Shown here piece after piece: positions 29 to 61,867 of a DNA stretch of 64,000 nt. The stretch is from Candidatus Cloacimonadota bacterium (GTDB lineage: Bacteria > Muiribacteriota > UBA6191): positions 83,648-147,647 of the forward strand of contig JACFNL010000001.1 of the NCBI GenBank assembly GCA_019454875.1, read 5' to 3'. Each line of letters opens with the position of its first letter. Positions within the stretch are counted from its first letter, which is position 1. The notes below the pieces were generated by a model, which was not told where the DNA came from, made no database searches, and saw only the letters and a program-made list of their open reading frames with translations. Both the position numbers and the translations under genes were made by a program.

Positions 29-3000
29 TCAACGAAGGATCGCAAATTTTAAATTTACTCTGCGTCTGCGATCCCCATGCCTGGCATTCAACTTCATAAA
101 ATAGACCCCATTGGCTACACCTGGGGGTAGATAACTCATTAAATCTATCTTGATTGCTGAGGCAGGCATCAGATCGATTCTGGCAACTCTGGCTCCGGCT
201 GTATCATGTACAGAAATATTGAGTTCTTCCGGGGTTCTGGTAAATACACAATCCAGGTATCCACGATTGCGAATTGGATTTGGGTAAGTGGCGCACCTTT
301 CCAGATCAAACGGTTTTAAAACCGTTAAGACCGCTAATGCCCGTGTGTAGTTTCCAGCTGCATCATGGGACTCCACGACAAGGTCATGTTTTCCTGGGGT
401 AAGTTTCAGATCCCCCTCCCATTGATTGCTCTCATTAGGATTTAGGATATATGCTTTATTTTCTGCCACAACTTTAACTGAGGTCACCAGACTTTGAGGG
501 TCCTGACTGTAGATACTTACCTTCTGAGTCCCCATTTCCCAGTCCTGATTTAAACTGGAAATATCCAGTTCAGGGGGCATACTGTCTCTTATGAGACTAA
601 TCCGATTTAAATTTCCGCTACTGATGCTGTAACTCAGAACACCATTTTGACAGGCTAGTGTCTGGGGCGGCAATAATACCCCCTGTTCCCCTTTTTGCAG
701 AAATACAAGATTCTGGCAGTCCGTCTGAAGCTCAATTCTGCCTCTGGAACTAAGATCCATATCCGTTTTCTGGTGATGAACAAAGGGAAAATCTGAGAGT
801 GAATAGACAGTTCTGCCCGCTGTTTCCGAAAATGGCTCCAAAAACTCCGTCTGTTTCCTTGGGCCTAGTATCAATTTACCTATACTTTGACTGCTAGTAC
901 TCTGGTGATTGTCAACATGTAAAAACACGGTATCAGTAACCGTTCTTCCCCTTGTATCTTCTGCAGAAATGTTAAAACGCATATCACCAACAAAGCGCTT
1001 ATCAATCCGAAAGCCTCCAGCAATACCTCTGGCATAATTTTTGTTCCCCAAAGGTACTAGCTGCAGAGGCAGCATTTCCGACATACTCAGAACCGGCTGC
1101 ATCGCCTGACTGATCGTAATTTTTGGCTTACCCTGTCCAGGCTCCCAAAGAAGATAGTCATCCCTACCATCCCAGTCCAGCCCCTTAAACACATACCGAA
1201 ATTCATGCTGATCCACTGGGTTTGCAAATACTTTTACCTGGTACTCTGGCCCTTTATCCACTTTAAAAGGAATCTGTAGGTAGTTTTGTTTGCTGTCCGT
1301 TAACAGGACATTTCCAGCCTGGTCCCTAAATCCCTGGAAATGAAATATTGCCTGACCATTTACCTTGGATTTTGGCATCTGGAACATAAATCTTAATTCA
1401 TTGGTTTCAACAGGCAATTGATAACCGGACTTCATGGTGATTAGTTCCTGGTTGCGTAGAAACCTTACAAACACTGTTTCGTCTCCGTGAATCCTTATCA
1501 GTTCTGGAGCCTTGAATACAAACTCAAATACTTCCGATGTCGCAAAGGTGTCTGGATGGGATGGGTCAAGAAGCAGATCGCCTTCGACAAAAAATACCTG
1601 GGTAGCAAACATGGTAGAAACCTGGCTATCCAGAAAAATCTTTTCCCCACGGCCAAACTGTGCTAGTGGTGTACCTTGTCTGGCGGCATCCAAAGCTTCA
1701 ACAAACCAGTAAATTTCGTCCGTTGCAGAGGGTAAAACAGGAACTCCAGAGCTGGTAACATAGGTAAAGTCAACCTGGTACTCCAGGGTGTTGGCTGGAA
1801 GATCAATCACAGTTGTGCGATCTCCCGGTGTCTGACTTTCCCGAGACAGATGAAGTCTGTACGACTTGGCAGCCTCCACGGCCTCCCATTGCATTTTTAG
1901 CACGGGATTACTGGTGACAGTACTAACCGTTGTTCCGCGAAAAAATGATGTGGAACGAGGAGATATTCGTGTTGGGATAGGGATCGTATTGGGATTTAAT
2001 TTAAGAATCCGCCTGGATACACTCAGATTGCCAGCCAGATCCTGGGCCACAAATTCAAAACTGGCCTGTCCTGGTCTTCCTGGCAGGCCCAAAACTACGG
2101 GAGATATTCCTTCTATCACAAAGGCAAGTTGCTCCGTCTCAGCAGGATAGTCTGGCTGGGCCATAGAAGTCAGTATCTGGGGGCGGGTAGTTGTCAAAAG
2201 GTTCCCGGCCTGTTCCGTATCGGGATTCCATTGATAAACATTCAGAACCAGTGTGGATAAATCGGGATTTCCTGAGGTGTTTGTAAGAAATCCACAACCC
2301 CTGTCGGCCAGATGACCCTCAAAACGAAAAGTCTGGGATGTGATAAATTCCAGATCTCCAAGATCGGCCACGGATACGGTTGGGGCCAAGGTATCCAAAA
2401 TCAGTGTACTGGTAAAACCAACCTGGTTGGATGCCAGATCTGTAACATCCCCCCGGAGTCGGTACAATCCATCTTTAGTTCCATCCTTAGGCATTCCTAA
2501 ACGGCCCTCATGGCGAATTTCAAGGGCAGCTATCTGGGTCGCCATATCAGATGGATCCTGAGACAGAAACTTCATCACCCCTTCTGTTACACTACCTGAA
2601 GGGAAAAAATTATAACCAGGATACGGTGACATCAGCTCCAGTTTCAGATTGGTCCTTTTTCTGTCTATACCTGAAATGGCCTGAGGCACTCCAGCCCGAT
2701 CCTGAAGCGATAGCTGGGCAAGGGACAATTCCGATACACAGGCCCCATCCACGGGAAAACTTTGTAGTACTATGGGGGCCAGTGTGTCATAAGTATAGGA
2801 ATGAGTTTTTTCTGTGATATTACCTGTTTTGTCAGAGGCCCTGATCCTTATTTCATAAATCCCGTCGCTGCTCCCATCCGTTGCCGGCAAAGAGGTGGTG
2901 CTAAATGTTCGGTAGATGGACTGTTTTGACTCATCAACAATTTTAGTGCTCTCAAGCAAGAGATTGCCGGGACCTGCAATCACAAAATCTGATACAGAAT

Positions 3001-6000
3001 AGTCCGCTTCAAAATCCAGTATGGAAACTGAATTGTGAGGTCCGGTGTTCACAGAAACCGGCATCGTAGATACAAAAGATTTATCTTCAGGGTTACTTAA
3101 AAACAGGGGTTCAAGAATACCTTTTCTATCGAGAAAAAATGTGCGGTAAAAGCGCTTTTCATTACCCACATTATCCTTGCCAAGATATTCAAACCTGTAG
3201 GTTCCATCTGTCACAATAGGCGTGGCCGGTCGGGCTGCCAGATCAAAACCAGCTTCCCCAGGCACAAAAGTTATCAGGGGGACTTTAGCTAAAGAATCAA
3301 GACCAGTCTGCAATGGGCCAAACAGCTCGATTTTTAAACCGGGAGTAGAAATTCCCGATGCGTTTTGTGTGGTTAACTGATCCTTAAACCAGTCCTGCAA
3401 ATCAATTCTGGTGGATACAATCGTAGTCATAAGAGTTGAATCTGTCGGCGAAAGAATAATTGTGGGGGCTGAGGCTCTTGCACTAGGTGCAACTGTGTCC
3501 ACAATCATGGCTAGACCTGTAGTTCGGGCCACGGGGTTTCCAAAAAAGTCCTCTCCTCCACTGACCTCAAATTCCACAATTCCATCATAATCAAATTCAA
3601 CCGGTTCAACCTCATACAGGTAACGAAAGGTAAATGTACCTAACTCCTGAGGAAACACGGAAGGCAGTTTGGCCGCCTGTTTAAATACATAACCAGCCTG
3701 TTTCATACGAACATCCGGTGCTTTACGCATGGGGAAAAATGCCTCCATTTCCAAAGGCACAAGATCAAATGAATAAAACACGGTCTGCCAGGGACTCGAT
3801 ACCGTGGAGTCCGGAAAAATTAACACCCTATCCCCTAAGTCTGGATAATTAAGAATACTCAGTTTGTTGAGTGGTGCTTCTGTATCATTTTTGTGAATTT
3901 CAATGGGCCGTACAGATAAATCCGGATCGGTATTGTCAAATCTATCAATCATTTGTACCCAGACAATTGTTGGTGTACTCAAGGAATTGGCAACTGTGGA
4001 AATATCTACATTCTCCAGCCTGAATACCCCCTGATCATCTGCTGAGAACGGTACACAGGTGAGATTGGCACAAACAGAAAGGGTAGAATCGAGAAGGGAA
4101 CCAGGAATTGGTATGGAACCCGGAGTTGTTCTAGGGATTCTGGCCTGGGAATCAATTACAAATCCTGCCGGTGCCCCAGCAGGTGGCAACAGTAAAAAGC
4201 CTCTGGAATTAGGTTCGGATGTACCCTGTAAAAGCATGGTATCTGTATTGATGTACAATACAGGCAGGGTAGTTCCCGGTAAAGGAGCTGGAGCCTGCAA
4301 AACGGGAGCTATGGGAGGATTTACATCACGGATGACACTCATGGAGAGAATCGCCCCCAGATTCCCCAGATTATCAGAAGCCTGAATCTGAATGAACTCC
4401 TCAACCCCATCCAGAAGGTCAAACAAGGGAACATTAGCCCTCCAGTTGACGCTATTTCCGGTACTGACTGGAATAGGAGGCTGAGGCACATTAAAGGGAA
4501 ATCCATTGTATGCAACCGATATATCAGTGCCTCCAGGGGCTTGATTTACATCTCTTAAGATAATCTCTGGAATACGATTCCCTGAAATGCGAATCTGTGT
4601 GGTAATTCCAAAACCATCAATTGCTGTACCATTCAGATTGAGTCCTAGGCCATCTGGCAAGGGAATTCCTGTGATCAAAAAGCTGGGATCAACCCCGGTA
4701 ATGGCTACCGGATCTACAGTTAACTCAGGAGATTTTAAGGACACTAAAAACTTGAGATCGTCCGCTCCCGAAAAGTTCGGCGCAGTGGGAAAGTTTTCAT
4801 AGTTATCATCAGGCCCCGAGTCCTGAAGCCTCATGGCCAAATCAGGCCCAGTCAAATCTTTAAGTACAGTAACCGAAGTACAGGGATTGCTTCGGTTGCC
4901 AACCTGATCCAGAAGACACAGATTAAACTGTAAAATCCCGTCAGGTACATTTTCAAAATTTACAATTCGATCCATGTTAAAGCGTTCAAACACCAGATTG
5001 GCAAAACGGTTGGTGGCATCTGGAAAATCAACTGTAACTACAGCACCGGTAGGAACCCCCTGTGGATCTGTGATGGCAATAGTCTGTGAGGTTGCAACAA
5101 AAGCATCATCGAGGGGAGAAAATGTTGCCGGAACCAATCCTCCCGAAGATGTGGGAATTACAAAAGTCTGTATCCCCTCCACTCCTGTGGAAGTCAGTCG
5201 AAAAATCTCAAAGAAAAACTCTACTCTCCCATGTTCTGACAGTACGGAATTTGGATCCTGGGTGGCTTCGGCCCTGACTGTAAAAAGTCTTTGCGTGATG
5301 GCATCTCCATCCTGCAGATTGGTGAATACCGGGGTAGGAGGGGGGGCATAATCCTTGATCAGAAACAACTCAGCCACATTAGCCACATTCACATTGCCTA
5401 AGGCATCTTCCGGCACATAAAACAGACGGTAAGCCACCTGTCCCGCTGGAGTATAGGCCGGAACTGTAAGCACCGGCTCAAAAATACTGGCATCTATCAA
5501 ATCAGCAAACTGTCCCGTATTAGGATCCGTAAAAAAAATTCTGTCATTAAAGGGTCCTGTATTAACTCCTGCATCAAGATCCGGTGAATCCTGAGAAAAC
5601 ACATGCATCTTGGAAGGCTCGCGCCGCTCGTTTCCTACTGCACCCCGAACCGTAAATATGCTGTCCTCAAATGGTGGATCCACCGATGGAGGCGTATTTC
5701 CAAATATAAAAACCGAGGCCGGACTCTGAAGAATGGCTGCCTGTGGGGGAACTGTATCTTTTCTGATAAGAATTCTTCTGGGGATACCTGGTGTGGGATT
5801 GGTCAAGGTACCAAAGGCATTAAATGCCCCTGGGGATAAACCTCTTTGGGTTTCTCCATGAGCCGCATCCCTGGCTCCCACAATCACTTCATAATCTCCA
5901 TCAGGAATAGTCTTGAAGTCAAATCCGATTGCAGAAAACTCTCCTAGGGCAGGTCCAGTACGGGCTGGAGTAATGTTTGGCGAGGAAAGACCGGGGCTTC

Positions 6001-6895
6001 TATCAATCAAAGCCACTGCCAAGGGTTGCGGTCCCGTAAATGTGGTGACATCGCCAATAAATTCCACTAATAAGGGTGGGCCAGTAGGAGGAAACCCACT
6101 TAAAATCCGCCCAAGCTGGGCTGCCACGAGGGCATTGGATTCTGGCCGTGCCACAGTGGCCACTGGATTGGGATTGGGAGGGGTGTCTGGATCATTATCA
6201 AAAATTGCCGGATTATTAACTACAGTACCAACAAATGTGACCTGCAAGGAGTTTCCAGGAATATTGACATCTACTCGGTTAAAAAAGACTTCAAGAAATA
6301 CTTCCGGGTTGGATGGACTAAAATTACTGAAAAAATTTCTTACTGTTGGTGTGGGCAGATTTAAAGTTCTGCCCCCTTCTATATCAAAAGCCCCGATAGC
6401 TGGAGCAGCTGGTGGCCCCTGATCCACAATAAACCGCAGCTCATCACCACTGGAAAAAGTCAATGGGCCCAGATCCCATCCGGCACCACCCCCGTCACCA
6501 ATTGGATTTCGGGCAAAAAGATAGAGCCAGGTCAACCCCTCAAACAGGGGAATGTCCTGATTGGTAGGAATTCCCTCATCCACATCGGCAATGGTTTGTA
6601 TGGTCTGGGCAAACACAGGGCTGTTTTCAAATTGATTCATGATACGAATGTCTGCCGGAGTAGACTCTACCGTATAAGTGAAACTGCCTAAAATTGTGGG
6701 GCCTACATTGCCTCCTGAATCAGTAATCAGACTCTCACCATCATTGGGATCATCAATAAATTCAAATCTGGTAATAGCCGCGTCTGTTATAAAGGACAAC
6801 AAACAAAAACAGACAAAAAGCAGCCGTAAAAAATGACAACGGACAATGAAGTACATAAGAGGCTTCAATCTACCTTTTTTTGTGCGACAGTTCAA
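29..6895 (-). CDS. Giant secreted surface protein (2288 aa), adhesin-like, with T9SS-type C-terminal sorting domain
   Basis: N-terminal signal peptide (likely ATG at 6856; the ORF-track start at 6895 is TTG). Many repeated DTxAP/DTVPP-type Ig-like module starts. C-terminal ~80 aa reads CATYPNPIRNRGYLDCVFT...NISVHDTAGARVARIDL...GVANGVYFMKLNARHG...KFAILR, the pattern recalled for the T9SS type-A CTD (TIGR04183: YPNPf...IyDxxGrxV...GvYFyrL...kmvLlK). N-terminal and internal blocks are paralogous to the upstream giant ORF. Confidence 0.6.
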   Translation of the reverse strand: MNCRTKKGRLKPLMYFIVRCHFLRLLFVCFCLLSFITDAAITRFEFIDDPNDGESLITDSGGNVGPTILGSFTYTVESTPADIRIMNQFENSPVFAQTIQTIADVDEGIPTNQDIPLFEGLTWLYLFARNPIGDGGGAGWDLGPLTFSSGDELRFIVDQGPPAAPAIGAFDIEGGRTLNLPTPTVRNFFSNFSPSNPEVFLEVFFNRVDVNIPGNSLQVTFVGTVVNNPAIFDNDPDTPPNPNPVATVARPESNALVAAQLGRILSGFPPTGPPLLVEFIGDVTTFTGPQPLAVALIDRSPGLSSPNITPARTGPALGEFSAIGFDFKTIPDGDYEVIVGARDAAHGETQRGLSPGAFNAFGTLTNPTPGIPRRILIRKDTVPPQAAILQSPASVFIFGNTPPSVDPPFEDSIFTVRGAVGNERREPSKMHVFSQDSPDLDAGVNTGPFNDRIFFTDPNTGQFADLIDASIFEPVLTVPAYTPAGQVAYRLFYVPEDALGNVNVANVAELFLIKDYAPPPTPVFTNLQDGDAITQRLFTVRAEATQDPNSVLSEHGRVEFFFEIFRLTSTGVEGIQTFVIPTSSGGLVPATFSPLDDAFVATSQTIAITDPQGVPTGAVVTVDFPDATNRFANLVFERFNMDRIVNFENVPDGILQFNLCLLDQVGNRSNPCTSVTVLKDLTGPDLAMRLQDSGPDDNYENFPTAPNFSGADDLKFLVSLKSPELTVDPVAITGVDPSFLITGIPLPDGLGLNLNGTAIDGFGITTQIRISGNRIPEIILRDVNQAPGGTDISVAYNGFPFNVPQPPIPVSTGNSVNWRANVPLFDLLDGVEEFIQIQASDNLGNLGAILSMSVIRDVNPPIAPVLQAPAPLPGTTLPVLYINTDTMLLQGTSEPNSRGFLLLPPAGAPAGFVIDSQARIPRTTPGSIPIPGSLLDSTLSVCANLTCVPFSADDQGVFRLENVDISTVANSLSTPTIVWVQMIDRFDNTDPDLSVRPIEIHKNDTEAPLNKLSILNYPDLGDRVLIFPDSTVSSPWQTVFYSFDLVPLEMEAFFPMRKAPDVRMKQAGYVFKQAAKLPSVFPQELGTFTFRYLYEVEPVEFDYDGIVEFEVSGGEDFFGNPVARTTGLAMIVDTVAPSARASAPTIILSPTDSTLMTTIVSTRIDLQDWFKDQLTTQNASGISTPGLKIELFGPLQTGLDSLAKVPLITFVPGEAGFDLAARPATPIVTDGTYRFEYLGKDNVGNEKRFYRTFFLDRKGILEPLFLSNPEDKSFVSTMPVSVNTGPHNSVSILDFEADYSVSDFVIAGPGNLLLESTKIVDESKQSIYRTFSTTSLPATDGSSDGIYEIRIRASDKTGNITEKTHSYTYDTLAPIVLQSFPVDGACVSELSLAQLSLQDRAGVPQAISGIDRKRTNLKLELMSPYPGYNFFPSGSVTEGVMKFLSQDPSDMATQIAALEIRHEGRLGMPKDGTKDGLYRLRGDVTDLASNQVGFTSTLILDTLAPTVSVADLGDLEFITSQTFRFEGHLADRGCGFLTNTSGNPDLSTLVLNVYQWNPDTEQAGNLLTTTRPQILTSMAQPDYPAETEQLAFVIEGISPVVLGLPGRPGQASFEFVAQDLAGNLSVSRRILKLNPNTIPIPTRISPRSTSFFRGTTVSTVTSNPVLKMQWEAVEAAKSYRLHLSRESQTPGDRTTVIDLPANTLEYQVDFTYVTSSGVPVLPSATDEIYWFVEALDAARQGTPLAQFGRGEKIFLDSQVSTMFATQVFFVEGDLLLDPSHPDTFATSEVFEFVFKAPELIRIHGDETVFVRFLRNQELITMKSGYQLPVETNELRFMFQMPKSKVNGQAIFHFQGFRDQAGNVLLTDSKQNYLQIPFKVDKGPEYQVKVFANPVDQHEFRYVFKGLDWDGRDDYLLWEPGQGKPKITISQAMQPVLSMSEMLPLQLVPLGNKNYARGIAGGFRIDKRFVGDMRFNISAEDTRGRTVTDTVFLHVDNHQSTSSQSIGKLILGPRKQTEFLEPFSETAGRTVYSLSDFPFVHHQKTDMDLSSRGRIELQTDCQNLVFLQKGEQGVLLPPQTLACQNGVLSYSISSGNLNRISLIRDSMPPELDISSLNQDWEMGTQKVSIYSQDPQSLVTSVKVVAENKAYILNPNESNQWEGDLKLTPGKHDLVVESHDAAGNYTRALAVLTVLKPFDLERCATYPNPIRNRGYLDCVFTRTPEELNISVHDTAGARVARIDLMPASAIKIDLMSYLPPGVANGVYFMKLNARHGDRRRRVNLKFAILR

Positions 6896-9800
6896 TCAAC
6901 GCAGCACTGCAAACTTGCCACGATGTACAAATTGTTTACGGGAGGTTTCCAGTCTCAGTCTATAAAAATACACCCCATTGGCAATTTCATTGCCAGAACG
7001 GGTGCGTAAATCCCAGTGCATCCGATTACGACCAAGGACTGGTGTCATCTCCTGGGTGGCAACAAGCCGGCTTGCTGCATCATATACACCAAACCACGCT
7101 CTCACCGCTGGTTCATTGGCAAAAAACTCAATACTTAAATCCTGAGATTTTCGTACAGGAGATGGGGCCACCTGCACCCACTCCAAACCTTCCCCCGCAA
7201 GCATCAAAACTGATTTTTGCAGCCGTGTTTCCCGGCCACTGCGATCCCTGGCAGAAATATTTAGTGATACTTCTCTGCTGCTTTGAGCTTTAGGAACAAA
7301 AAGGCTTATCTGATCCTGTCTTTTTCTGTCCCAGTCAAGAGAAACATCATCTAGCTTCACACTAAGACTTTGCCAATCCGGCCCACTACCTGAATCACTC
7401 AGCTCAAAGGGGGCATCAAACCAGCCTGAAACCATGGCATCAGCCCCAGTCCACTCCAGTTTTGGATCTACCATATCCCTGGCCACAACATAATCCCGGC
7501 CCAATCGAATGTGGGAAGCATTCAGATCACCGGCGTACAAAAGCTGCCCATCCCCAAGTACCTCATAAACTCCAGCATGGGTAAGCGAACCAATTCTTGC
7601 GACCGAGGGACTGATCTTTAATTTGGCTTCCAATCCATTTGCCTCACTGCCAGCACCAAAAATTCTGGCATCATAAAGAAGCTCCAACTCGCCTGAAATC
7701 TTCTGAATCGGGCTTAGATTCCCACCCAACCAGACTGAACCTGGCTTTTGGGTTTCTGGAACCATCAAATCCAGATGATATCCTGACTGCGGCAAAACAA
7801 GGGACAGACTTGCCTTAGGTTCATAAGCCTCAACCCTGATTTCATTTTCTTTTTCAATCCATCGTCCATAACGATCCGTCACTCTGGTTCTTAGAAAAAA
7901 GAAGCCGCTTTCATTACCTTGAAACACTAGTGGCATGGTATAAGTGTGGGCTACTACCCTTCCTTCCAGAATTCTTTCTTCCACTGCCAATGCCTGAATT
8001 GGCCGAATTGCCTGATTTTTCAAAAGTTGGAACTGGGGAGAAATCAAAAGGTTGTTTTGTCTTTCTATGGGCATTTCTTCTAGTAGGCCCCTAGCTGATA
8101 CAAAGCGCACTACGGCTACAAGTTCCTTGTTGCTCACGGGATTGGTGAATAGGCGCAAACTGACTTCTGCACCGAAGTCTGGAGTGATCATGGTAGTAAA
8201 TCCACTCATTTTCTGGCCAAGAAGATCCGAAAAATCGCTGATACTCAACTCCAGGTTTTCCCGAGGATAGGATTGTCTGGGATTGATGGGGATTTCTCCC
8301 GTAAACCGAATCTTTTGTGTGGTGGAACTGCCCGGTGGCATAGACTTTAGCATTACCGTCTGACCCATATTTTTTAAAATCACGGAACCGGAAGCAAAAC
8401 TGCCGTCAGGTCTTTGTAGATATGGCTTGGAGAAGGACAGTTCAAGTTCAAATACATTGGTGCTAAGTGTGGTGTCTTTTGAAGACAGGTTTTGAATCTG
8501 ATTGCCTGTGATAAGGCTGGCATTTTCCAGAAAAAACGGCCTGCCATCCAGAAAAAATGTCCTGGGAGGACTAAATGGGGTGCTGTTTGCCAAAGAGTTT
8601 AGACCCCGAATACGAACCTCAAACGGCTCCAGTCCTGATGCTGGGCTGGTGGGAGTAAGACTTATCAGTTCAGAAAACAGATCCGTTGCCGGATAAATCT
8701 TCTGAAACACAACCCCTGAAGCACTGCCTAAAAGCCTTCTAACTTCAATCTCCACCTGATTCAGACCACTGATCATTTCCCATTCCACACGCATCAGGGC
8801 TGAGGATTGAATCCAGGGACTGCTCTCCCCGTTTTGAACTGTTTCATCAGGAGGAAAAAGAATTCTTGGAATCCCTCGATTGGCCTGTAAAAGACTCAAT
8901 ACCCGTTTCATAACAAAAGAATTCCCGGCCTGATCCTCAGAAACAAGCTCTACTTCATAAAAACCAGCTGGAAAAATTCCTGGAATAGAGGTTGTGAATC
9001 CAAAGTCGGCCTGTGCTGAATGATATGGAAATGAGGTTTCTGCCTTTGGAATAAGATTATCTACGGGCTGGGGAAACAGAACAGGAGCTCCGGCTACCTG
9101 ATTGTTGGGATCAAAAAACCGTAAACCCACACTTAGGGTAGTGTTTTGACTATGCTGTGCCCCCCCCACAAAGAAGTGACAGGGACCATCATCCTGGATG
9201 GAGCCAAAGACCTCCAGATTTATGCCTAAAGTGGTGAGAAACAGGCGGCCCTCACTAAAATCCTGAATACGGATACTCGGTGCCTGGTTATCATAAAAGA
9301 AGTGGGATGTCTCTTCTCTTATATTACCGGCATAGTCCAAAATTTTGGCCTGAAGCTCCATTTTCCCATCAAGACTCCCGTCCGTTGCCAGAATTTTTGG
9401 AGTAGTCGGAGTACCAGAAGGTAAAAATGCCAGCTTGTAAAGAGAAGTCGGGATGGCCTCCTCAACTGATAAAAGCTCAGAGTCTCCACCAATAAATCCT
9501 GGCTGAGCCTCGGGGTTGGTAGGCAGATAGGGTTCGGCCAGAAAAAGTTTTAATCTACTTTCTCTTGCCACCCCGGATACGGGAACAGGAACATCGAGTC
9601 TTCCGGGCAAGTCCTGTGTAATAACATCAAGAATGGAAATGGGACCTCTTTGGCATGTTCCCGCAGGTGGATAAAATCCCTTAAATACGGGAGCCTGACT
9701 ATCCAGTAAAAAACTGTGAATCTTTTCTGTGGTATTGCCAGACTTGTCTACAGCAAAAATATGGATCTGATACAGTCCATCGATTGAGCCATCATATACT

Positions 9801-12800
9801 GGTGGAACTGTCAGAAATCTTCGTAAATGATTGGGAGCAATGATTGAGGTAGTTGAAAGACTTACAGGATTGCCCAAAGGATCAAACAGGGAAAATCCAC
9901 TCAAATTTTCATTGGTATCCAGTCTTTGAATGATTAAATCAACAAAAGCCGAACCCCCCGTGGTTGGAAAGCGGGATATCACACTTTTATCGGTTGGATT
10001 CGTGAGAAGAAGTGGCTGGGCTATTGGAGTTTGATCATAAACAAAACTGGAATAAAATGGATGTTGATTGCCTACATTATCCACAGCCACAGTGCTGATA
10101 CGGTAGACTCCATCAAGCAGTGGACTCAAAATTCTTACTGTTTTGTCAAATCCTGCTACAGGGGTAGTCAAAGGGAGAAGGGCTAGTGCATTTTCAGGAT
10201 TGATATGTAAGGGACCCCGGATTTCAAGGGTGGAGGCCGCAGTGTTTAATCCAGAACGATCAAGGCTTCCATTGCTTGTTACAAAGTCATCCCAATCTAC
10301 ACTGACTTCAATCCCCTGCTGATTCACTCTTTCACCCTGTGGGGGAATAAAACGGGGGCGAACTTCCTCGACTAAAAAGTCCGGGCTCGTAGTCGCTAAG
10401 TTAGGGGCCAGTGAATCCACATAAAATGCTGTTGTGATAGTGGCACTGCGTACAGCATTACCAAAAAGATCCACTCCCTTAGAAACTAGAGCCTGTACCT
10501 GTCCATCAAATCGTCCCACCTGGCTTATAGGAGAATAACTGTACTCAAATACAGTGGATGCACTGCCTTGCGGCAAAGAGGTCAAAAGACTGGCAATTCT
10601 GGTGGTAGCACCAAACTGCAAAAGAGAAAGCTCAGGGGCCTTAACCATAGGAATGATAGTCCTGAGCCGAAACTGTACTGATTCCAGGGGAGTAAATAAG
10701 GTGCTCAACAAGGATGGGGGCAGACTCGATGGTGGAAAAATTACAATATCAGTTAACTGATTACGAAACTCAATAATTTCCAAAGATGCTATTGGGGCCC
10801 CTCCCGGAAAATAGAAAATTTCAATCCCCTCGGAAGATGCCTGTGGATCCGTATTGGAAAAAGCATCCACTGCCTGAACCCAGATCGTGGTTGGTATCGT
10901 TGGGCTCTGGGGCAGATGATCAATGGCTACCCGTGTATCAAAGCCACCATCATCATTGACAAAAACCTCATGCCAGGATGCCACAAAAGCTGTCTGAGGC
11001 AAGGAGCTGAAAAATGAGTCCGTTCTTGGGATTGTGGTTGGTGAGCTTAAGGGTAGTCTTGGCACTGTCTGGCCTGTGACAAAACTGCCTGGGTCGGTAC
11101 TAGGAGTAAGAATCACTACCTTGGAACGAAGACTCTGATTGACTGCCACCTCAAGTACAGGGGCATCATTGGGTGCTAGACTACCGGCAATTCTTAGGGA
11201 GTCCGTAGAAGTAAAAACCTGCCTTCTTCCTGTAAATGGAATAATGGGGGGATCGGAGAGAACGGGGCGACGGGCCGGGATTACATCACGAAAAATCTGA
11301 ACCGAGGTTGTAGGGCCAGAGATTCCGTTCTGATCAAATCCGCGTAAGTCCAGAATCTCTCTTTGAGCTTCTGGAATGGTGCTCATATCAACATCTACAA
11401 AAAATACGGCATCGGTAAGATTTAATCCAGCCAGATTGGAAGTGACCGAACTTACATGCGCTCCGGTTAACTCAACCCTGTCAATAAATGAGATGCCGTC
11501 GATCACCTGCCCCACCAAACGCAGCTGATCCATCGTACCTGGATCAGGAACCAAGGGCTGTACCCCATCAGGTCCAGTATCCACGGTAAACTCAGGGCTT
11601 ATCAAAGACACAACAAAGGCTTCATCATCAGCACCGAGACGATTTGGAAAAGGAAACTGGTTATCCGGTCCGGAAAACTGCCTCTCGGCATCCGAAAAAC
11701 GAATGATTGGGCCTGTTGTATCTTTGATAAACACAATAGAGGTTGTGTTTACAGACCGGTTGCCAACCTCATCCTCGAGATGAATAATAATTGTCATCTG
11801 TCCATCTATAAACCCATCGAGGTTTACAATTCTTGAAAATTCAAAGGTACTGGGAACATTTCCAAAAAAATCGACCCCTGTCAGACCAGCCCCCCCTAAA
11901 GGTGAAGGCGGTATATTCCATGTCAGATTGTCGTCCAGAAGAGACGACTGATTGGCTGGATCCAAAAAAAGACCGTTACCCACAGTAGTAAAAACCGAAG
12001 CAAAACCACTGCTATCAATCACAGTCATACTCATATTCACATTGCCATGTTCCCGTAAATCATCAGGAGGTACCCCCGTATTCTGGTTTGATCCTGATAC
12101 CCTTACAGTAAGCAGACGGTTTGTAACAATCACTGAAGGATCCACAGGATTTAACAAAACTGGATCCGCTGGGGGCTGTAAATCCTTGATCACATAAAGA
12201 GCACTAGTTGTCTCCGATGTGTTGAGCTGGGGATCTACAGGATAAATTACAAGCTGATAACCTCGTTGACCACCAATGGCTGGATGAGGATTGGGAGGTG
12301 ACAGGGTGGAATCCGGTAAAACAGGGGTAAAATCAAGTCTTTGAAAAAAACTGCCCCCACCAAAGGTTGGAATCTGTTCAAAGTGTCCATTTTTTCCAGG
12401 GGTTGTAACTAGTACCCCATCATCACGCCGTAAATCCACCTGAACTATATTTTCATCCCCCCTTTCATCCTGAACTCTGCCGGTTACATCAAAAAGTTCC
12501 CCCTGATAAGTCAGGTAGGGCAAGGGGGGTTCGGACTGATCCCCAACAATCAGAATACGGCGGTTGGGTACCATACTGACCTCAAAGGAATTAGGAGGAA
12601 TGGTATCCCGAATGACTGAAATGATGGCTGTCACACCTGGGACACGGCCAGCTGAGGCCGTCACAGCCCCTGGGGACTGTCCATTTAAGGTCTGGGCAGC
12701 CGTAAAATCATCAGAGGATATCCAGATTTCATAATCCCCGTCATTCATACCCGTAAAATTGTAATTAAAGGTTGTATACATGCCAGGCCCTAGGGATGGG

Positions 12801-14020
12801 CCAAAGGGATATTTCACGGGAAACGGGGTCAGATTAGGAAACACTGGAGCACCATAAGGGTAGGCCACCACCTCATCGGGATATACAACCTGAGGTACAC
12901 CAGGGGTTCCCGGGCCCACAGATATTGCATAAGGGCCTGTAATGGTGGTTTTTCTGGACTGCTCAGGACTGACTACCGTGGTAAACCGAATAGGCAGAAG
13001 AAAGGAATCTACAAATGCATTGGACTCCCGTTTTGGCTGTGCACCAGGTAAACCAACTGTACCATCGGGGCTTCTAAACAATGCAGGATTGTTCTCGACA
13101 AAACCCGAATATTGAATCGTCATCAAAACCCCACTGCCTGAAGAATTGGTAGCATTGAATAAATCAAGCTTGTTAAAAACCACCTGGTAGCGAAACCGAT
13201 TGTTAATGGGATTCAGATTAGGTTTTAGGGTTTCAACCAAGAGAGGTGCATCAATACAGTTGGCTGTTCCCTGACAGGTAAAAAAATCAATGTTTGGGCT
13301 ATCTGGCGGCCCCTGATTGGAATCAATAAAAATAAAATTGCCCGAGTCTGTACCTGTCTGAAAGACATGAGGCCCAAAAAACCAGGGAGACGCATCCGTA
13401 ACCCCGGTGATTGTAGTTATGTCAGTGGCATTTGCTACAGTCAAAGCAGTATTAGCCGGTAGATTAAACCCAATCGGAGTGACATTTTGACCATTGGATG
13501 TAATTGTGCCCAATGCTCCAAAAGTAACTGTACAGTTTCCGGCAGTGACACATTGAAAGGACCCATTACGGACAGGAAAATTGATTGTTCCCGTACCTGG
13601 TGGATTGGTTATTTCAAATCGTACCGGTCTGTCATTGGCGTTTCTGGCCCAGGCCAAAAGCTGGGTTCTTCCTTCAAACATGGGAAGATTGGGGCTGAAT
13701 ACCTGCTGCTCCGGGGTTAGAGTACTGTTAAAGGGAGGATGGGTAATTGCGGTTAAATGAAGTACCTGCCCAATCTGATTAAAAAATGTGACTTCAACAT
13801 CACCTTCAAGATTGGCAATTCCTGTGCCTAAAGCATCATTATTGTTGGCCGTCTCAACAATGTACTGAAATGGACGCAGGAATTCATTTCCGGTTTCAAT
13901 ACCCTGAATCAAATGCTGCCCTTCGTTTGGTTCATCCTCATAACGAAAGACGGTAATGTCAGCTAGGGAGGATGAAACAAGAAGAGCAAACAAAAATACA
14001 GACCGGATAGAAATCAGCAT
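6896..14020 (-). CDS. Giant secreted surface protein (about 2374 aa from ATG 14020), paralog of the downstream giant, with T9SS-type C-terminal sorting domain
   Basis: Start taken at Met27 (MLISIRSVFLFALLVSSSLADI signal peptide). The 14098 track start is TTG and lies inside the terminator hairpin. Shared blocks with the 2288-aa protein: PMFEGRTQLLAWARN vs PLFEGLTWLYLFARN, NNPALF vs NNPAIF, DGDYEIWISSDD vs DGDYEVIVGARD. C-terminus HWDLRTRSGNEIANGVYFYRLRLETSRKQFVHRGKFAVLR fits the T9SS CTD consensus. Stop TGA at 6896-6898, then 39-nt spacer to the next ATG. Confidence 0.6.
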   Translation of the reverse strand: MLISIRSVFLFALLVSSSLADITVFRYEDEPNEGQHLIQGIETGNEFLRPFQYIVETANNNDALGTGIANLEGDVEVTFFNQIGQVLHLTAITHPPFNSTLTPEQQVFSPNLPMFEGRTQLLAWARNANDRPVRFEITNPPGTGTINFPVRNGSFQCVTAGNCTVTFGALGTITSNGQNVTPIGFNLPANTALTVANATDITTITGVTDASPWFFGPHVFQTGTDSGNFIFIDSNQGPPDSPNIDFFTCQGTANCIDAPLLVETLKPNLNPINNRFRYQVVFNKLDLFNATNSSGSGVLMTIQYSGFVENNPALFRSPDGTVGLPGAQPKRESNAFVDSFLLPIRFTTVVSPEQSRKTTITGPYAISVGPGTPGVPQVVYPDEVVAYPYGAPVFPNLTPFPVKYPFGPSLGPGMYTTFNYNFTGMNDGDYEIWISSDDFTAAQTLNGQSPGAVTASAGRVPGVTAIISVIRDTIPPNSFEVSMVPNRRILIVGDQSEPPLPYLTYQGELFDVTGRVQDERGDENIVQVDLRRDDGVLVTTPGKNGHFEQIPTFGGGSFFQRLDFTPVLPDSTLSPPNPHPAIGGQRGYQLVIYPVDPQLNTSETTSALYVIKDLQPPADPVLLNPVDPSVIVTNRLLTVRVSGSNQNTGVPPDDLREHGNVNMSMTVIDSSGFASVFTTVGNGLFLDPANQSSLLDDNLTWNIPPSPLGGAGLTGVDFFGNVPSTFEFSRIVNLDGFIDGQMTIIIHLEDEVGNRSVNTTSIVFIKDTTGPIIRFSDAERQFSGPDNQFPFPNRLGADDEAFVVSLISPEFTVDTGPDGVQPLVPDPGTMDQLRLVGQVIDGISFIDRVELTGAHVSSVTSNLAGLNLTDAVFFVDVDMSTIPEAQREILDLRGFDQNGISGPTTSVQIFRDVIPARRPVLSDPPIIPFTGRRQVFTSTDSLRIAGSLAPNDAPVLEVAVNQSLRSKVVILTPSTDPGSFVTGQTVPRLPLSSPTTIPRTDSFFSSLPQTAFVASWHEVFVNDDGGFDTRVAIDHLPQSPTIPTTIWVQAVDAFSNTDPQASSEGIEIFYFPGGAPIASLEIIEFRNQLTDIVIFPPSSLPPSLLSTLFTPLESVQFRLRTIIPMVKAPELSLLQFGATTRIASLLTSLPQGSASTVFEYSYSPISQVGRFDGQVQALVSKGVDLFGNAVRSATITTAFYVDSLAPNLATTSPDFLVEEVRPRFIPPQGERVNQQGIEVSVDWDDFVTSNGSLDRSGLNTAASTLEIRGPLHINPENALALLPLTTPVAGFDKTVRILSPLLDGVYRISTVAVDNVGNQHPFYSSFVYDQTPIAQPLLLTNPTDKSVISRFPTTGGSAFVDLIIQRLDTNENLSGFSLFDPLGNPVSLSTTSIIAPNHLRRFLTVPPVYDGSIDGLYQIHIFAVDKSGNTTEKIHSFLLDSQAPVFKGFYPPAGTCQRGPISILDVITQDLPGRLDVPVPVSGVARESRLKLFLAEPYLPTNPEAQPGFIGGDSELLSVEEAIPTSLYKLAFLPSGTPTTPKILATDGSLDGKMELQAKILDYAGNIREETSHFFYDNQAPSIRIQDFSEGRLFLTTLGINLEVFGSIQDDGPCHFFVGGAQHSQNTTLSVGLRFFDPNNQVAGAPVLFPQPVDNLIPKAETSFPYHSAQADFGFTTSIPGIFPAGFYEVELVSEDQAGNSFVMKRVLSLLQANRGIPRILFPPDETVQNGESSPWIQSSALMRVEWEMISGLNQVEIEVRRLLGSASGVVFQKIYPATDLFSELISLTPTSPASGLEPFEVRIRGLNSLANSTPFSPPRTFFLDGRPFFLENASLITGNQIQNLSSKDTTLSTNVFELELSFSKPYLQRPDGSFASGSVILKNMGQTVMLKSMPPGSSTTQKIRFTGEIPINPRQSYPRENLELSISDFSDLLGQKMSGFTTMITPDFGAEVSLRLFTNPVSNKELVAVVRFVSARGLLEEMPIERQNNLLISPQFQLLKNQAIRPIQALAVEERILEGRVVAHTYTMPLVFQGNESGFFFLRTRVTDRYGRWIEKENEIRVEAYEPKASLSLVLPQSGYHLDLMVPETQKPGSVWLGGNLSPIQKISGELELLYDARIFGAGSEANGLEAKLKISPSVARIGSLTHAGVYEVLGDGQLLYAGDLNASHIRLGRDYVVARDMVDPKLEWTGADAMVSGWFDAPFELSDSGSGPDWQSLSVKLDDVSLDWDRKRQDQISLFVPKAQSSREVSLNISARDRSGRETRLQKSVLMLAGEGLEWVQVAPSPVRKSQDLSIEFFANEPAVRAWFGVYDAASRLVATQEMTPVLGRNRMHWDLRTRSGNEIANGVYFYRLRLETSRKQFVHRGKFAVLR

Positions 14021-14056
14021 GCAGATGAACACAGGCTGGAGTATAACAAATCGACC

Positions 14057-14085
14057 AAAAAAAAACTCCCGCGTAAACGCGGGAG
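14057..14085 (-). terminator. Rho-independent terminator (or attenuator) directly after pilA and before the giant genes
   Basis: Minus strand reads CTCCCGCG-ttta-CGCGGGAG (perfect 8-bp GC-rich stem, 14066-14085) followed by T9 (plus-strand A9 at 14057-14065). It starts 26 nt after the pilA stop. Confidence 0.6.
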
Positions 14086-14110
14086 TGATATAAATCAATC
14101 AGCTAACAGA

Positions 14111-14515
14111 TTAGCTGCCACAAGTGTATACATCTGGCTTGCAGTCTGAACCTACACAACCATCAATAGCACCGTGAAATTCACACCATACATCGCCTTC
14201 CTTATTGGACTTGTAATTGTCCTTTCCGGAAATACAGCCTGGATCTTTAGGAACTGATTGCAGATATTTAGCTTTTGCCAAAGTATCCAGATCACCCTGA
14301 TTCTGGATAGTCTTCTGCTCTCCTGTATCAAGGTTGTACATTTCCAAAGCACCCAGAATGGTTTTCTGGTTGGCATAACATGCTCTCATGTTGGATTTCT
14401 CTCTGGCCTGCCTGAAGTTTGGAATCGCAATGGCCGCCAAAACCCCGATGATCGAAATCACAATCATCAGTTCGATCAGGGTAAAGCCCCTGCGCTTTCG
14501 CAAAATTTTCATCAT
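14111..14515 (-). CDS. pilA: Type IVa major pilin PilA, with an unusual Cys-rich C-terminal region
   Basis: Class III leader MMKILRKRRG|FTLIELMIVISIIGVLAAIAIP (prepilin peptidase site G|F, Glu at +5). Mature C-terminus carries 6 Cys: CISGKDNYKSNKEGDVWCEFHGAIDGCVGSDCKPDVYTCGS. The ORF-track N-extension to 14599 overlaps pilC and is not credible. Confidence 0.8.
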   Translation of the reverse strand: MMKILRKRRGFTLIELMIVISIIGVLAAIAIPNFRQAREKSNMRACYANQKTILGALEMYNLDTGEQKTIQNQGDLDTLAKAKYLQSVPKDPGCISGKDNYKSNKEGDVWCEFHGAIDGCVGSDCKPDVYTCGS

Positions 14516-14585: not shown

Positions 14586-15797
14586 TTAATTATCTGCACC
14601 GTTCACAAGAGTTAACATGGGCATAAACACCGCAAGTACAATTCCACCAATAATCAAACCCATGAACACAATTACAACTGGTTCGATGATGGATGTCAAA
14701 CCTTTGACGGCATTGTCTACCTCAACCTCATAAAAATCGGCAATTTTCATAAGCATTTTGTCAAGTTCCCCGGTTTCTTCTCCTACAGCAATCATCTGAA
14801 CCACCATGGCAGGAAACACATTGGATGCCTTTAACGGGTCTGCAATACTTTCTCCCTCACGAATCGAGTTTCTAGTTGAATCTACAGCTTCCTTAATCAC
14901 CATGTTTCCGGCTGTAGCAGCCGTTACTTCCAGGGCCTGCAAAATGGGAACTCCCGATGTAATCATGGTGCCAAGAGTACGGGTAAACCTAGCCACTGCC
15001 ATCTTTCGCATCATGTTACCAACAGCAGGCATTCTTAAAATATTGACATCGTAAAGCCTCGCCCCTCTTTCGGTTCTGAAAAACTCAGAAATTGCCAGAG
15101 GCACTACCACAAGGGAAGGAATAATGATGAACCAGTAGCCAATCAGAAGATCGGAACAGTTTAATAAAAACACCGTAATAAACGGAAGTTCCACATTCAT
15201 GGACTCAAAAATGGATTTAAACTGCGGCAATACAAACATTACCAGGGCCAAAACCACCAGGCCGGCGATGGATAAAATCACAACCGGATATGTTAACGCT
15301 CCTTTTACCTTTGACTTAAGAGCCTCAGAGCTTTCCAGGTAAGTAGCCAGCCTCTTTAAAATACCGTCAAGAATACCACCTGCTTCTCCGGCCTTTACGA
15401 GGTTTACAAACAGAGCATCAAACACCCGTGGATGTTTGGACAAAGCCGAGGACAAGGTTGAACCACCTTCTACCTCAGTTCTCACCTGGGATAAAACTTT
15501 TGCGAATGCAGGATTTTCGGTCTGACCCTGCAAAATGGACAGACAACGAACCAGCGGTACCCCGGAACCCATCATTACCGAAAACATCTGGGCAAAGATG
15601 GAGACATCCTTGGTTCCGACCTTGCCTTTAAACAGGGAAAAGCTGAGGGCACTGCCCTTTTTCTTTTCCAGCTTAACGATGATGTAACCTTTCTCCCTGA
15701 GACGGGAGCGCACCTGCGCTTCGCTATCACCATCGGCCTCGCCGTTTATTGTTTTACCACCATCAAGGCTCTTGGCTTTGTAAACATATGTAGCCAT
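14586..15797 (-). CDS. pilC: Type IV pilus inner-membrane platform protein PilC (GspF family)
   Basis: 403 aa with two GspF-type repeats and three TM segments. Position between pilT and pilA. Confidence 0.85.
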   Translation of the reverse strand: MATYVYKAKSLDGGKTINGEADGDSEAQVRSRLREKGYIIVKLEKKKGSALSFSLFKGKVGTKDVSIFAQMFSVMMGSGVPLVRCLSILQGQTENPAFAKVLSQVRTEVEGGSTLSSALSKHPRVFDALFVNLVKAGEAGGILDGILKRLATYLESSEALKSKVKGALTYPVVILSIAGLVVLALVMFVLPQFKSIFESMNVELPFITVFLLNCSDLLIGYWFIIIPSLVVVPLAISEFFRTERGARLYDVNILRMPAVGNMMRKMAVARFTRTLGTMITSGVPILQALEVTAATAGNMVIKEAVDSTRNSIREGESIADPLKASNVFPAMVVQMIAVGEETGELDKMLMKIADFYEVEVDNAVKGLTSIIEPVVIVFMGLIIGGIVLAVFMPMLTLVNGADN

Positions 15798-15893: not shown

Positions 15894-16955
15894 TTATCCA
15901 TCTTTGAGCATACGGGATAACTCATCCTGCCTTGTGGAGTGTCTCATGGCCTCCTCATAAGTGATGTCCCCTCTTTTATAAAGGGTCTTAAGGGAATTTT
16001 CAAATGTCATCATGCCAATGTTCTGGCTGGTCTGCATAATTGTATAAAGCTGCTGAATCTTGTGTTCACGAATACAGTTCTGCACGGCAGCATTGGTCAA
16101 AAGGACTTCCTGGGCACAGACCCTTCCCTTGCCAGAAGCCATTGGCAATAGCTGCTGGGCCACCACACCCCGCAACACAAAAGACAGCTGTGTGGTTACC
16201 TGAGACTGCTGATGGGGAGGGAACATGTCTACAATCCTGTTGATTGTCTGAGCAGCATCGGTAGTGTGCAGGGTACCAAACACAAGGTGGCCTGTTTCCG
16301 CAAGAGTCATTCCCGCTGAAATGGTTTCCAAATCCCTCATCTCCCCTACTAGAACCACATCGGGGTCCTCTCTTAACACATGGCGCAGAGCCTCGTTAAA
16401 GGATAAGGTGTCCACATGCAGCTCTCTTTGATTAACAATCGATTTTTTATGATAGTGAAGATACTCGATCGGATCTTCAATCGTGATGATGTGCTTTCTT
16501 TGACTCTCATTGATCAAATCAATCAAGGCTGCCAGGGTTGTAGATTTACCGGAACCTGTAGGTCCGGTCACCAGAACAAGCCCCTTATGCATATCTGCAA
16601 ACTTTTTACAGACTGGCAGTACATTCAGTTCTTCCAGGGAAGGAATGGCGGAAGGAATAATCCTGAACGCAGCTGCAATACAACCTCTTTGTCTGTAGAC
16701 ATTCACACGAAATCGTCCAAACCCGTGAACCGAGTAGGACAAGTCAAGCTCCAGCTTTTCTTCAAATTCCTTCTGCTGTTCACTGGTAAGCATATTATAA
16801 ACCAGAGAACGGGTGTCCATTGGGGTCAGCTGGTCAAGGTCTGTGGCCACAAGCTCCCCATCCACACGAATTACCGGTGGTGTTCCCACGGTCAAATGTA
16901 AATCTGATGCCTCATTGTCCACGACCAGATTCAAAAGATCATTTAATACAAACAT
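15894..16955 (-). CDS. pilT: Twitching-motility retraction ATPase PilT
   Basis: 353 aa. Walker A GPTGSGKSTT, Asp box, His box, and PilT-specific AVQNCIREHK (AIRNLIRE motif). Confidence 0.9.
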   Translation of the reverse strand: MFVLNDLLNLVVDNEASDLHLTVGTPPVIRVDGELVATDLDQLTPMDTRSLVYNMLTSEQQKEFEEKLELDLSYSVHGFGRFRVNVYRQRGCIAAAFRIIPSAIPSLEELNVLPVCKKFADMHKGLVLVTGPTGSGKSTTLAALIDLINESQRKHIITIEDPIEYLHYHKKSIVNQRELHVDTLSFNEALRHVLREDPDVVLVGEMRDLETISAGMTLAETGHLVFGTLHTTDAAQTINRIVDMFPPHQQSQVTTQLSFVLRGVVAQQLLPMASGKGRVCAQEVLLTNAAVQNCIREHKIQQLYTIMQTSQNIGMMTFENSLKTLYKRGDITYEEAMRHSTRQDELSRMLKDG

Positions 16956-20162: not shown

Positions 20163-21114
20163 TACCCAGGTCCTGATCATTATATGCATAGTCAAAGGTC
20201 CACTCTTCATATTTTGCCGAAGCACCTGCCGTAAACTCGCCTTCATTTGATCCAAGTCTTAACCCATACTTTTCGGCAAACCATTTTTCAACCCCAAGTC
20301 TGAGTCCAACTTCTTCTCGCTCCCTCTTTACTCCATCAAGAGCAATGAGTGTACTTTGGTTTACCTGAAATGCACCACCAACTGTAGCCGTAATTGGAAC
20401 AGTATCTTTACGGCCTGTAGTCCACTTTAAGGATTCAAACATATCACGAAAGCTTGCACCCAGGGTAACCCGTTTACTGGCCTTGTATTGCACCCCAAAG
20501 TCAAAACCAACCCCATCAGCACTCTCGGTAAAAAGTTCCTGCTCCAAGTAACGCACTGTCCCACCCAGATTCAGTCTGGAATTGACTTGTTTGGCAGCCG
20601 AAATACTGATATTACTTTCTGCATCCTCAAAATAGGAAAAAATTCTTACGGGAGCTGTAGCCCTGCCAGCAGCCAGCGGTGCCCCATCTACTTCACCAGT
20701 CAGAATCGGATCATCAAACCGCCCGTTCCCATCTACATCCAGACCATTGTGAATCCTGGTTTCAGGGATTCCATCAACGCTGAAACGATGATAGGCCACC
20801 CCAAGTACCCAACCATCTTTACCCATAGGTCTGGCATAACCCAGATAATTATAATTGCGATCCAGACTAAGAGATGTATGCATGGCGGCGGCTTCTTTGC
20901 CTTTGACCCCTGCCAGTCCTGCCGGGTTCCAGTAAGTTGCATTCACATCCGAAGATACGGCCACCCCTGCCCCACCCAAACCAAGAATTCTGGCATCAAT
21001 TCCAAGATTGCGGTAAGCCGCAGCCTGGCCCTGAGCCGATTTGGCCTGACTGATTGTTGCGAGGCTGACTCCGAGCATCCCTGCCAGAACAAACCTTTTG
21101 CAATTTACTTTCAT
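20128..21114 (-). CDS. Outer-membrane beta-barrel protein, FadL/OMPP1-like (PorV-like?)
   Basis: Signal peptide MKVNCKRFVLAGMLGVSLATISQA with AGGAG Shine-Dalgarno 7 nt upstream. N-terminal ARILGLGGAGVAVSSDVNATYWNPAGLA matches the FadL-family signature (glGrAfaG..a.addas..f.NPAgla). C-terminal Phe (…SAKRRF) typical of barrel OMPs. At 339 aa it is shorter than canonical FadL or PorV. Confidence 0.5.
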   Translation of the reverse strand: MKVNCKRFVLAGMLGVSLATISQAKSAQGQAAAYRNLGIDARILGLGGAGVAVSSDVNATYWNPAGLAGVKGKEAAAMHTSLSLDRNYNYLGYARPMGKDGWVLGVAYHRFSVDGIPETRIHNGLDVDGNGRFDDPILTGEVDGAPLAAGRATAPVRIFSYFEDAESNISISAAKQVNSRLNLGGTVRYLEQELFTESADGVGFDFGVQYKASKRVTLGASFRDMFESLKWTTGRKDTVPITATVGGAFQVNQSTLIALDGVKREREEVGLRLGVEKWFAEKYGLRLGSNEGEFTAGASAKYEEWTFDYAYNDQDLGNVQRISAKRRF

Positions 21115-21149
21115 ACCCATACTCCTAATTCCCGCATCCTTGCCCAAAA

Positions 21150-22475: not shown

Positions 22476-22644
22476 ATCACCCTGCCTTCCAAAAAATAAG
22501 GCATCCATACATTCTTCACACAAATCCTTCCTGATTTCGGCAGCTTCTTCCATGCACCTAACAAAATTAATGCAATTACCCATATTCCTGATCACTCTGT
22601 CTTGATTACAAATCCATCCTTGATTACATTGCTTAGGAAGGGTT

Positions 22645-59732: not shown

Positions 59733-59734
59733 GT

Positions 59735-61856: not shown

Positions 61857-61867
61857 ACACTCCTGTT

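Follow-up and report, generated by a model that had tools for sequence, protein, structure and literature searches.

Directly after the type IV pilus genes pilB, pilT, pilC and pilA, the 64,000-nt stretch of DNA analyzed here (contig JACFNL010000001.1 of assembly GCA_019454875.1; hereafter the window) carries two tandem genes for very large paralogous proteins, giant A and giant B. The reading preferred here, with moderate confidence, is that the giants are co-inherited surface rods built of immunoglobulin (Ig)-like domains and sorted in the manner of type IX secretion system (T9SS) cargo, that their genes form a two-gene unit of their own, and that the adjacency to the pil genes is a clade-specific neighborhood and not a mechanical link. 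The sequence material comprised the 64-kb window of the source genome and loci of relatives of up to 27 kb each. The organism, an uncultured deep-sea bacterium, belongs to the candidate phylum UBP17, formerly placed in Cloacimonetes; its closest genome is labeled 'bacterium UBP17_UBA6191', and other relatives include Candidatus Cloacimonadota NORP72 and GY13CL_bin.7. In GTDB, NORP72 is assigned to phylum UBP17, which earlier went under Cloacimonetes; a bacterium closely related to it was attached to particles in the deep ocean (PMC9426571).

The full open reading frames (ORFs) of the giants occupy 29..6895 (2288 amino acids, aa) and 6896..14098 (2400 aa) of the minus strand. The real start codons are likely the ATG at 14020 for giant A (6896..14020, MLISIRS..., 2374 aa) and the ATG at 6856 for giant B (29..6856, MYFIV..., 2275 aa), because these agree with the gene calls of the 98%-identical homologs P0023 and P0001, respectively. 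With these starts, 90 nt separate the pilA stop from giant A, and 39 nt lie between the two giants, the latter as given in the first-pass annotation. The proteins are paralogous nearly end to end (BLASTP, 27% identity over 2311 columns, E 9e-129). The initial description of two tandem paralogs right after pilB-pilT-pilC-pilA on the same strand is thus borne out by the ORFs, by this alignment and by the profile models of the pil genes.

Sec-type leaders were recognized by eye at 14020–13961 in giant A (MLISIRSVFLFALLVSSSLA) and at 6856–6779 in giant B; in both giants and in their homologs a hydrophobic core stands between a charged start and an A-x-A-like end. The mature N-terminus that would follow cleavage is conserved in both paralog families as (I/V)(T/N)RF(E/V)(F/Y)..(E/D).PN.G (about 13960–13900 and 6778–6720 of the minus strand), and it is still recognizable in a Wallbacteria homolog as VVTAFTYI. 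Profile searches with N_methyl, TIGR02532 and PilY1 gave no match in either giant. Having neither a prepilin leader nor a PilY1 domain, the giants are not type IV pilus components of the minor pilin or PilY1-like kind.

Searches of the full-length giants against Pfam and NCBIfam returned weak Ig-type matches (Big_13 and Big_3/Big_3_3, with OmpL47 below its cutoff). DTxPP-type module boundaries occur 7 times in giant A and 13 times in giant B, and D..GN module ends about 10–12 times in each; these counts suggest that each giant is composed of roughly 15–20 beta-sandwich (Ig-like) domains. The Ig-like chains described at first pass therefore stand, but their number comes down from dozens per protein. 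Structure prediction, proposed at that stage as a check on the modules, agreed with them: the AlphaFold2 models of giant B for residues 1–505 (predicted local distance difference test, pLDDT, 75) and 1490–2275 (pLDDT 86) are both all-beta. Their structural neighbors in Foldseek are generic Ig, FN3 or macroglobulin chains, including the T9SS cargo GhpA and PorU, and no special head domain was found in the modeled parts of giant B. By sequence, giant B matched none of the PDB chains, solved S-layer proteins and GhpA included. Both giants are acidic (isoelectric point 4.7–4.8). For the Bacteroidota O-glycosylation motif D(S/T)(A/I/L/V/M/T), 6 and 13 sites were counted where 8.4 and 9.1 would be expected, so no enrichment is seen.

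Lengths are nearly constant within the two families (A, 2352–2385 aa; B, 2253–2297 aa), and the alignments show conservation along the full protein length. Identity to homologs ranges from 37 to 98% overall, and from 37 to 57% apart from the 98%-identical closest homologs. The fixed lengths therefore point to a defined architecture and not to a variable repeat array; a reading of the giants as variable-repeat adhesins was considered and ruled out on these lengths together with the full-length conservation. A search of 1.84 billion representative proteins with residues 1–505 of giant B found 7 relatives, each a member of family A or B, which marks the family as very narrow.

At the family level, profile matches identify the tail of the giants as a T9SS type A sorting domain. 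In giant B this domain (about 32–337, minus strand) reaches 23.9 bits against TIGR04183 with the full protein and 28.1 bits with the last 123 aa (cutoff 23). The corresponding sorting-type domain of giant A (about 6899–7228, minus strand) is matched by the C-terminal domain region of PorU (27.8 bits) and by FlgD_ig (25.3 bits, cutoff 27), and the C-termini of giant A orthologs do match TIGR04183 at E ≤ 0.01. In a comparison of 21 tails, i.e., the C-termini of the A and B families and of their distant relatives, TIGR04183 was found at E ≤ 0.01 in 20, PF18962 in 15, FlgD_ig in 11 and, weakly, CHU_C (type B) in 5. The assignment to type A follows from the 20 of 21 tails matching TIGR04183 as against the 5 of 21 weakly matching CHU_C. 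The first-pass annotation had placed type A tails on both window proteins, which TIGR04183 confirms for giant B and for the family but not for giant A taken by itself. Matches of the tails extend to the C-terminal domains of PorU, PorZ and T9SS-dependent proteases. Their conserved motifs are PNPV, YD.SG, NGVYF and, at the extreme end, KFAVLR, and the tail match stops no more than 8 residues before the stop codon. In the giant B model of residues 1490–2275, model residues from about 696 to 786 are all strands (pLDDT of the block 85–94), and the NCBI label of the homolog P0015 is 'T9SS type A sorting domain-containing protein'. A hidden Markov model built from the sorting tail found no further ORF carrying it in the window or in the fetched loci.

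The junction between pilA and giant A contains a predicted intrinsic terminator (14057..14086, minus strand; z -4.1) with a 9-bp G+C-rich stem (14086–14065), a 4-nt loop and nine T, and the 116-nt stretch around it folds at -35.4 kcal/mol. It begins 24 nt past the pilA stop, a distance put at 26 nt at first pass; the first-pass coordinates and spacings thus agree with the present ones to within 2 nt. Behind the last pilin gene, strong predicted terminators are found in the window and in the relatives' loci L003, L012 and L013, and at the same place in L010 an L003-like hairpin with a T-run was recognized by eye. Past the window's terminator stands TGTTATACTCC (14038..14048, minus strand), an extended -10-like element that, from its sequence conservation, is a candidate promoter for the giants. 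Its 11 nt are invariant in the window, in L012 (about 216–226) and in L013 (about 9929–9939), the surrounding spacer being diverged; L013 has a 31-nt insertion before TGTTATACTCC and a 9-nt deletion after it. The element ends 20 nt before the giant A ATG in the window, and 12–20 nt before it over the loci compared. The equivalent place is taken by TGCTATGAT in L003 and L010 and by TGCTAGAAT in L016, which are TGnTAnnAT-type elements. If TGTTATACTCC acts as a promoter, the mRNA leader would be very short or absent. In L003 (2826–2861) and L010 (about 9956–9990) the hairpin's T-run and the giant A ATG overlap, with the TGCTATGAT element lying directly 5' of the hairpin; a transcript initiated there would begin within the hairpin and escape termination. 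Taken together, the terminator and the conserved -10-like block argue for the giants as a unit separate from pilA.

The whole gene block lies on the minus strand in the order lipoprotein, outer-membrane barrel, NHL protein, pilB, pilT, pilC, pilA, hairpin, giant A, giant B. Synteny was compared in the 10 clade genomes with a contig long enough for the order to be examined. Identities within this clade amount to 86–91% for PilB, 87–92% for PilT and 37–57% for the giants. Giant B is followed by the rpsL-rpsG-fusA-S10 operon, a neighborhood as constant as that of the pil genes. Given so narrow a clade and an unrelated rpsL neighbor that is equally constant, the conserved order is no proof of shared function. 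In most relatives a small HD-domain gene separates pilA from giant A, and a second pilin gene is found there in some (inserts at L003 1736–2733, L008 9351–9848, L009 9230–9727 and L010 8528–9739). The window and its closest relative L012 leave no room for an HD-domain or second pilin gene, and L013 shows neither. Between giants A and B, NORP72 has a 535-aa ORF without a family match and a gene for a GT2 glycosyltransferase (L008 17137–19479).

In more distant lineages the modules are separate. The loci L021 and L023, with PilB 69–70% and the barrel 43–47% identical to those of the window, carry lipoprotein(s), barrel, aroE, pilB, pilT, pilC and pilin, and no giant follows the pilin. Proteins of 1064–1079 aa encoded upstream in these two loci were considered as giant homologs and found not to be homologous. 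The bin of L021 (72% G+C) has giant homologs on another contig, beside ndk (L011), and giants without pil neighbors occur in L005, L006 and L011; in Wallbacteria three tandem giants stand with a small TPR gene, and no pil genes are adjacent. Both the pil block without giants (L021, L023) and the giants without pil genes (L005, L006, L011) support the reading of the adjacency as a neighborhood. The conservation of the pilA-giant synteny, a point raised at first pass, thus recurs in 10 of the 10 clade genomes but is absent in L021 and L023, and co-conservation of the giants with pil genes was not found past the close relatives. The distant homologs (23–28% identity; Wallbacteria and the 72% G+C bin) form clusters of giants of about 1650–1700, 2160–2190 and 1815–1840 aa (L005 3473–21366; L006 2–17499; L011 4346–16492 and 21190–26492). 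A small gene (212–230 aa), TPR-like in Wallbacteria, follows the first giant of these clusters. The same sorting-type tail is present on the first two giants and, if the contig extends to its end, on the third.

The pil genes form a genuine type IVa pilus core, with the PilB, PilT and prepilin motif models all above their cutoffs. The assembly ATPase gene pilB (16980..18701, minus strand) matches TIGR02538 with 719.8 bits (cutoff 675.65), and an N-terminal MshEN domain, which binds cyclic di-GMP (c-di-GMP), is recognized by NF053729 with 65.5 bits (cutoff 38). The retraction ATPase gene pilT (15894..16955, minus strand) reaches 489.6 bits with TIGR01420 (cutoff 319.1). For the platform protein gene pilC (14586..15797, minus strand) T2SSF matches at E 1.2e-65, and the PilC and GspF equivalog models score 406–439 bits, under their cutoffs. 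The gene pilA (14111..14515, minus strand) encodes a type IVa-like major pilin of 134 aa (N_methyl, 39.7 bits versus 21.2; TIGR02532, 38.5 versus 16.3) with the leader MMKILRKRRG followed by FTLIELMIV; its top NCBIfam match is GspG, below cutoff. No pilD was seen within the window, and no pilQ or pilMNOP was seen there or in the loci L021, L022 and L023.

Three further genes precede pilB. A lipoprotein with CarboxypepD_reg-like beta-sandwich domains is encoded at 21150..22595 of the minus strand (PF13620, 39.4 bits versus 32.3), with a visible lipobox LLLSGC. The next gene (20128..21147, minus strand) encodes an outer-membrane beta-barrel of the PorV/PorQ family (NF033709, 105.1 bits, cutoff 90); the PorV, PorQ and PorV2 equivalog models all fail on it, and its sole match among solved structures is PorV (6h3i, E 0.0024). 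The third gene (18747..20255, minus strand) encodes a secreted NHL beta-propeller protein (NHL, E 2.3e-18) with a helical C-terminal part; its true start probably lies downstream of the ORF start, and it is kept at the same position throughout the clade. A weak match of this protein to PorZ (16.8 bits versus 260) was dismissed.

UBP17 and two divergent lineages, of 58% and 72% G+C, have the lipoprotein and barrel genes directly upstream of pilBTC-pilin, joined in UBP17 by the NHL gene, and Muirbacterium has the two as a bare pair (window 18747–22595, minus strand; L021 4077–11026; L023 7213–10936; L022 2495–5157). The pair might function as a partner of the pilus machine at the outer membrane. 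There is no basis for assigning the barrel to the giants, because barrel and lipoprotein accompany pilBTCA where the giants lie elsewhere and because the bare pair exists in Muirbacterium. It is conceivable, at a low probability, that lipoprotein, barrel, NHL protein, PilB/T/C/A and giants make up one hybrid UBP17 surface apparatus, in which the barrel, with no secretin gene seen nearby, would be the outer-membrane partner of the pilus and the giants would be co-regulated cargo or adhesive partners. If true, this would be an undescribed functional link between a type IV pilus and T9SS-type sorting.

Several known systems offer a comparison. SprB of Flavobacterium johnsoniae is a very large, repetitive protein that the T9SS exports to the cell surface, as is proposed for the giants. 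Its tail is of type B (CHU_C/TIGR04131-type), and it requires gld and spr genes. The giants differ in their type A tail, gld and spr genes are absent from the window, and the organism is equipped with genes for flagella and type IV pili; the resemblance to SprB-type adhesins drawn in the first-pass annotation is thus loose. PilY1 and minor pilins mediate adhesion and, like the giants, are encoded near pilus genes, whereas the Sec-type leader and T9SS-type tail of the giants predict a different export route. TfsA and TfsB of Tannerella forsythia are about half the size of the giants. They are likewise two large T9SS cargo proteins with a C-terminal domain that act jointly on the surface (PMC4175972, PMC8869499), where they are S-layer glycoproteins; the search of solved structures with giant B detected no similarity to proteins of this kind.

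The grappling-hook protein GhpA of Aureispira has a T9SS tail and forms surface appendages of uniform length (bioRxiv 10.1101/2024.01.29.577165). In common with what is predicted for the giants, GhpA (PDB 9flw, 9fly) is a giant protein with a Sec leader, a long Ig-like chain and a C-terminal T9SS sorting domain. It differs in having 5898 aa and 52 Ig repeats, in being the product of a single gene and in forming heptamers, whereas the giants are two paralogs of about 2300 aa in a different phylum with no detectable sequence similarity to it. GhpA is proposed to be anchored by GhpB/C, homologs of PorP and PorE whose genes lie downstream of ghpA; the neighborhood of the giants contains neither a PorP nor a PorE gene. 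In the literature on Cloacimonetes with type IX secretion and on a link between type IV pili and the T9SS, no description of such a coupling was found. The most fitting classification of the giants is a new and narrow family within a known kind, giant Ig-like cargo of the T9SS type.

According to the preferred reading, the giants would cross the inner membrane via Sec with cleavable leaders, and the beta-sandwich chain would fold in the periplasm. A T9SS-type pathway could then read the type A tail and move the giants over the outer membrane, where the C-terminal end would keep them attached to the cell surface and the N-terminal region, which is clade-specific, would point outward. The result would be two kinds of acidic rod of fixed length on the surface. 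The likeliest role, in a UBP17 bacterium associated with particles in the deep sea, would be attachment to particles or other cells, or formation of a paired coat on the surface. Giants A and B would most likely form their own two-gene transcription unit, expressed from the extended -10 promoter just past the pilA terminator, and regulation shared with the pilus for a surface-attached life is possible.

A number of observations weigh against this reading. The tail of the window's giant A remains under the TIGR04183 cutoff, with no match at E ≤ 0.01, and related tails are present in Wallbacteria, where a T9SS is not established. No SprA/Sov, PorU or PorK/L/M/N was seen in the 64-kb window and the short loci of relatives. 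All 10 clade genomes examined share the order lipoprotein-barrel-NHL-pilBTC-pilin-giant A-giant B. With the ATG placed as it is in L003 and L010, transcripts of the giants there must start at or before the hairpin, which makes pilin read-through possible. The function of the giants is moreover deduced from their architecture.

One rival reading is a true coupling, in which attenuated read-through from pilA expresses the giants and these work with the retractile pilus, the lipoprotein, the barrel and the NHL protein as one attachment or motility apparatus; in a variant, the giants would be secreted with the help of the type II secretion system-like PilBTC machine. Such coupling is judged unlikely. 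The shared strand, the 90 nt from the pilA stop to the giant A start, the block order in all 10 clade genomes, the giant A ATG overlapping the hairpin T-run in L003 and L010, the PorV/PorQ-family barrel gene within the same block and GspG (below cutoff) as the top NCBIfam match of the pilin would all fit it. But a strong terminator recurs in relatives and is followed by a conserved promoter-like block, an HD-domain gene and a second pilin gene intervene in relatives, and the rpsL adjacency is conserved equally well. The clade is narrow, with PilB 86–91% identical; distant lineages hold lipoprotein, barrel and pilBTCA without giants, and giants are found elsewhere without pil genes. The giants themselves have predicted leaders of the ordinary Sec kind and neither a prepilin motif nor a PilY1-like domain. 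The operonic, genetically coupled arrangement asserted at first pass is weakened by the terminator, the TGTTATACTCC block, the intervening genes, the rpsL adjacency and the separation in distant lineages; judged from these sequence comparisons, the case for a pilus link of the giants appears weak and unsupported.

The tail could also have a meaning other than a T9SS signal in this lineage, being a FlgD-like Ig domain for anchoring or assembly in proteins that reach the surface otherwise. This, too, seems improbable. TIGR04183 is matched at E ≤ 0.01 by 20 of 21 tails, with giant B above cutoff; the domain forms the very end of the protein, with the PNP, GxY and K-x-hydrophobic end motifs that are typical of such tails; it matches the C-terminal domains of PorU, PorZ and T9SS-dependent proteases; and the lineage was classed with Cloacimonetes in the Fibrobacteres-Chlorobi-Bacteroidetes (FCB) group, Cloacimonadota being among the FCB phyla possibly having a T9SS (PMC11285876). 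On the other side stand the giant A tail, which matches FlgD_ig best and fails TIGR04183, the FlgD_ig matches in 11 of 21 tails, the same tail in Wallbacteria and a 72% G+C lineage, a barrel that fails every PorV and PorQ equivalog model, and the lack of a T9SS core gene within the window. Lower still is the probability given to co-assembly of the pair into a regular two-component surface layer like that of TfsA/TfsB in place of individual adhesive fibrils. Tandem paralogs that always occur together, their fixed lengths and acidity, and the glycosyltransferase gene between the giants in NORP72 are compatible with such a layer, but the giants are about twice the size of TfsA/TfsB, their fold matches are generic, and the Bacteroidota O-glycosylation motif is not enriched. 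There is also no sequence similarity to any solved S-layer protein. In favor of such a layer, TfsA and TfsB are themselves T9SS-dependent S-layer proteins with a C-terminal domain (PMC4175972, PMC8869499).

The remainder of the window contains housekeeping and flagellar genes. The flagellar genes fliF, fliH, fliI and fliJ and a FliG/MgtE-like gene lie at 58618–63427 (minus strand), and one organism thus encodes flagella, type IV pili and T9SS-type cargo. A gene for a stand-alone PilZ-domain protein (41438–42136, minus strand) is located 23 kb from the MshEN-bearing pilB. An Rfam scan over the full window gave neither a riboswitch nor any other RNA family, and thus no c-di-GMP riboswitch near pilA or the giants. 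Sizeable ORFs (327–658 aa) without a significant Pfam or NCBIfam match are present at 27604–29580 (plus strand), 29481–30791, 33700–35208 and 47018–48277 (minus strand) and 22645–23628 (plus strand).

For the pilus, the more intriguing lead is the PorV/PorQ-family barrel and the CarboxypepD_reg lipoprotein, which accompany pilBTCA across divergent lineages. As to the giants, if the reading of them as a separate unit of Ig-like T9SS-type surface rods is true, they would be the main candidates for surface attachment in the little-known deep-sea particle-attached phylum UBP17, and their fixed-length family of two paralogs would join the short list of giant T9SS-type cargo outside Bacteroidota.

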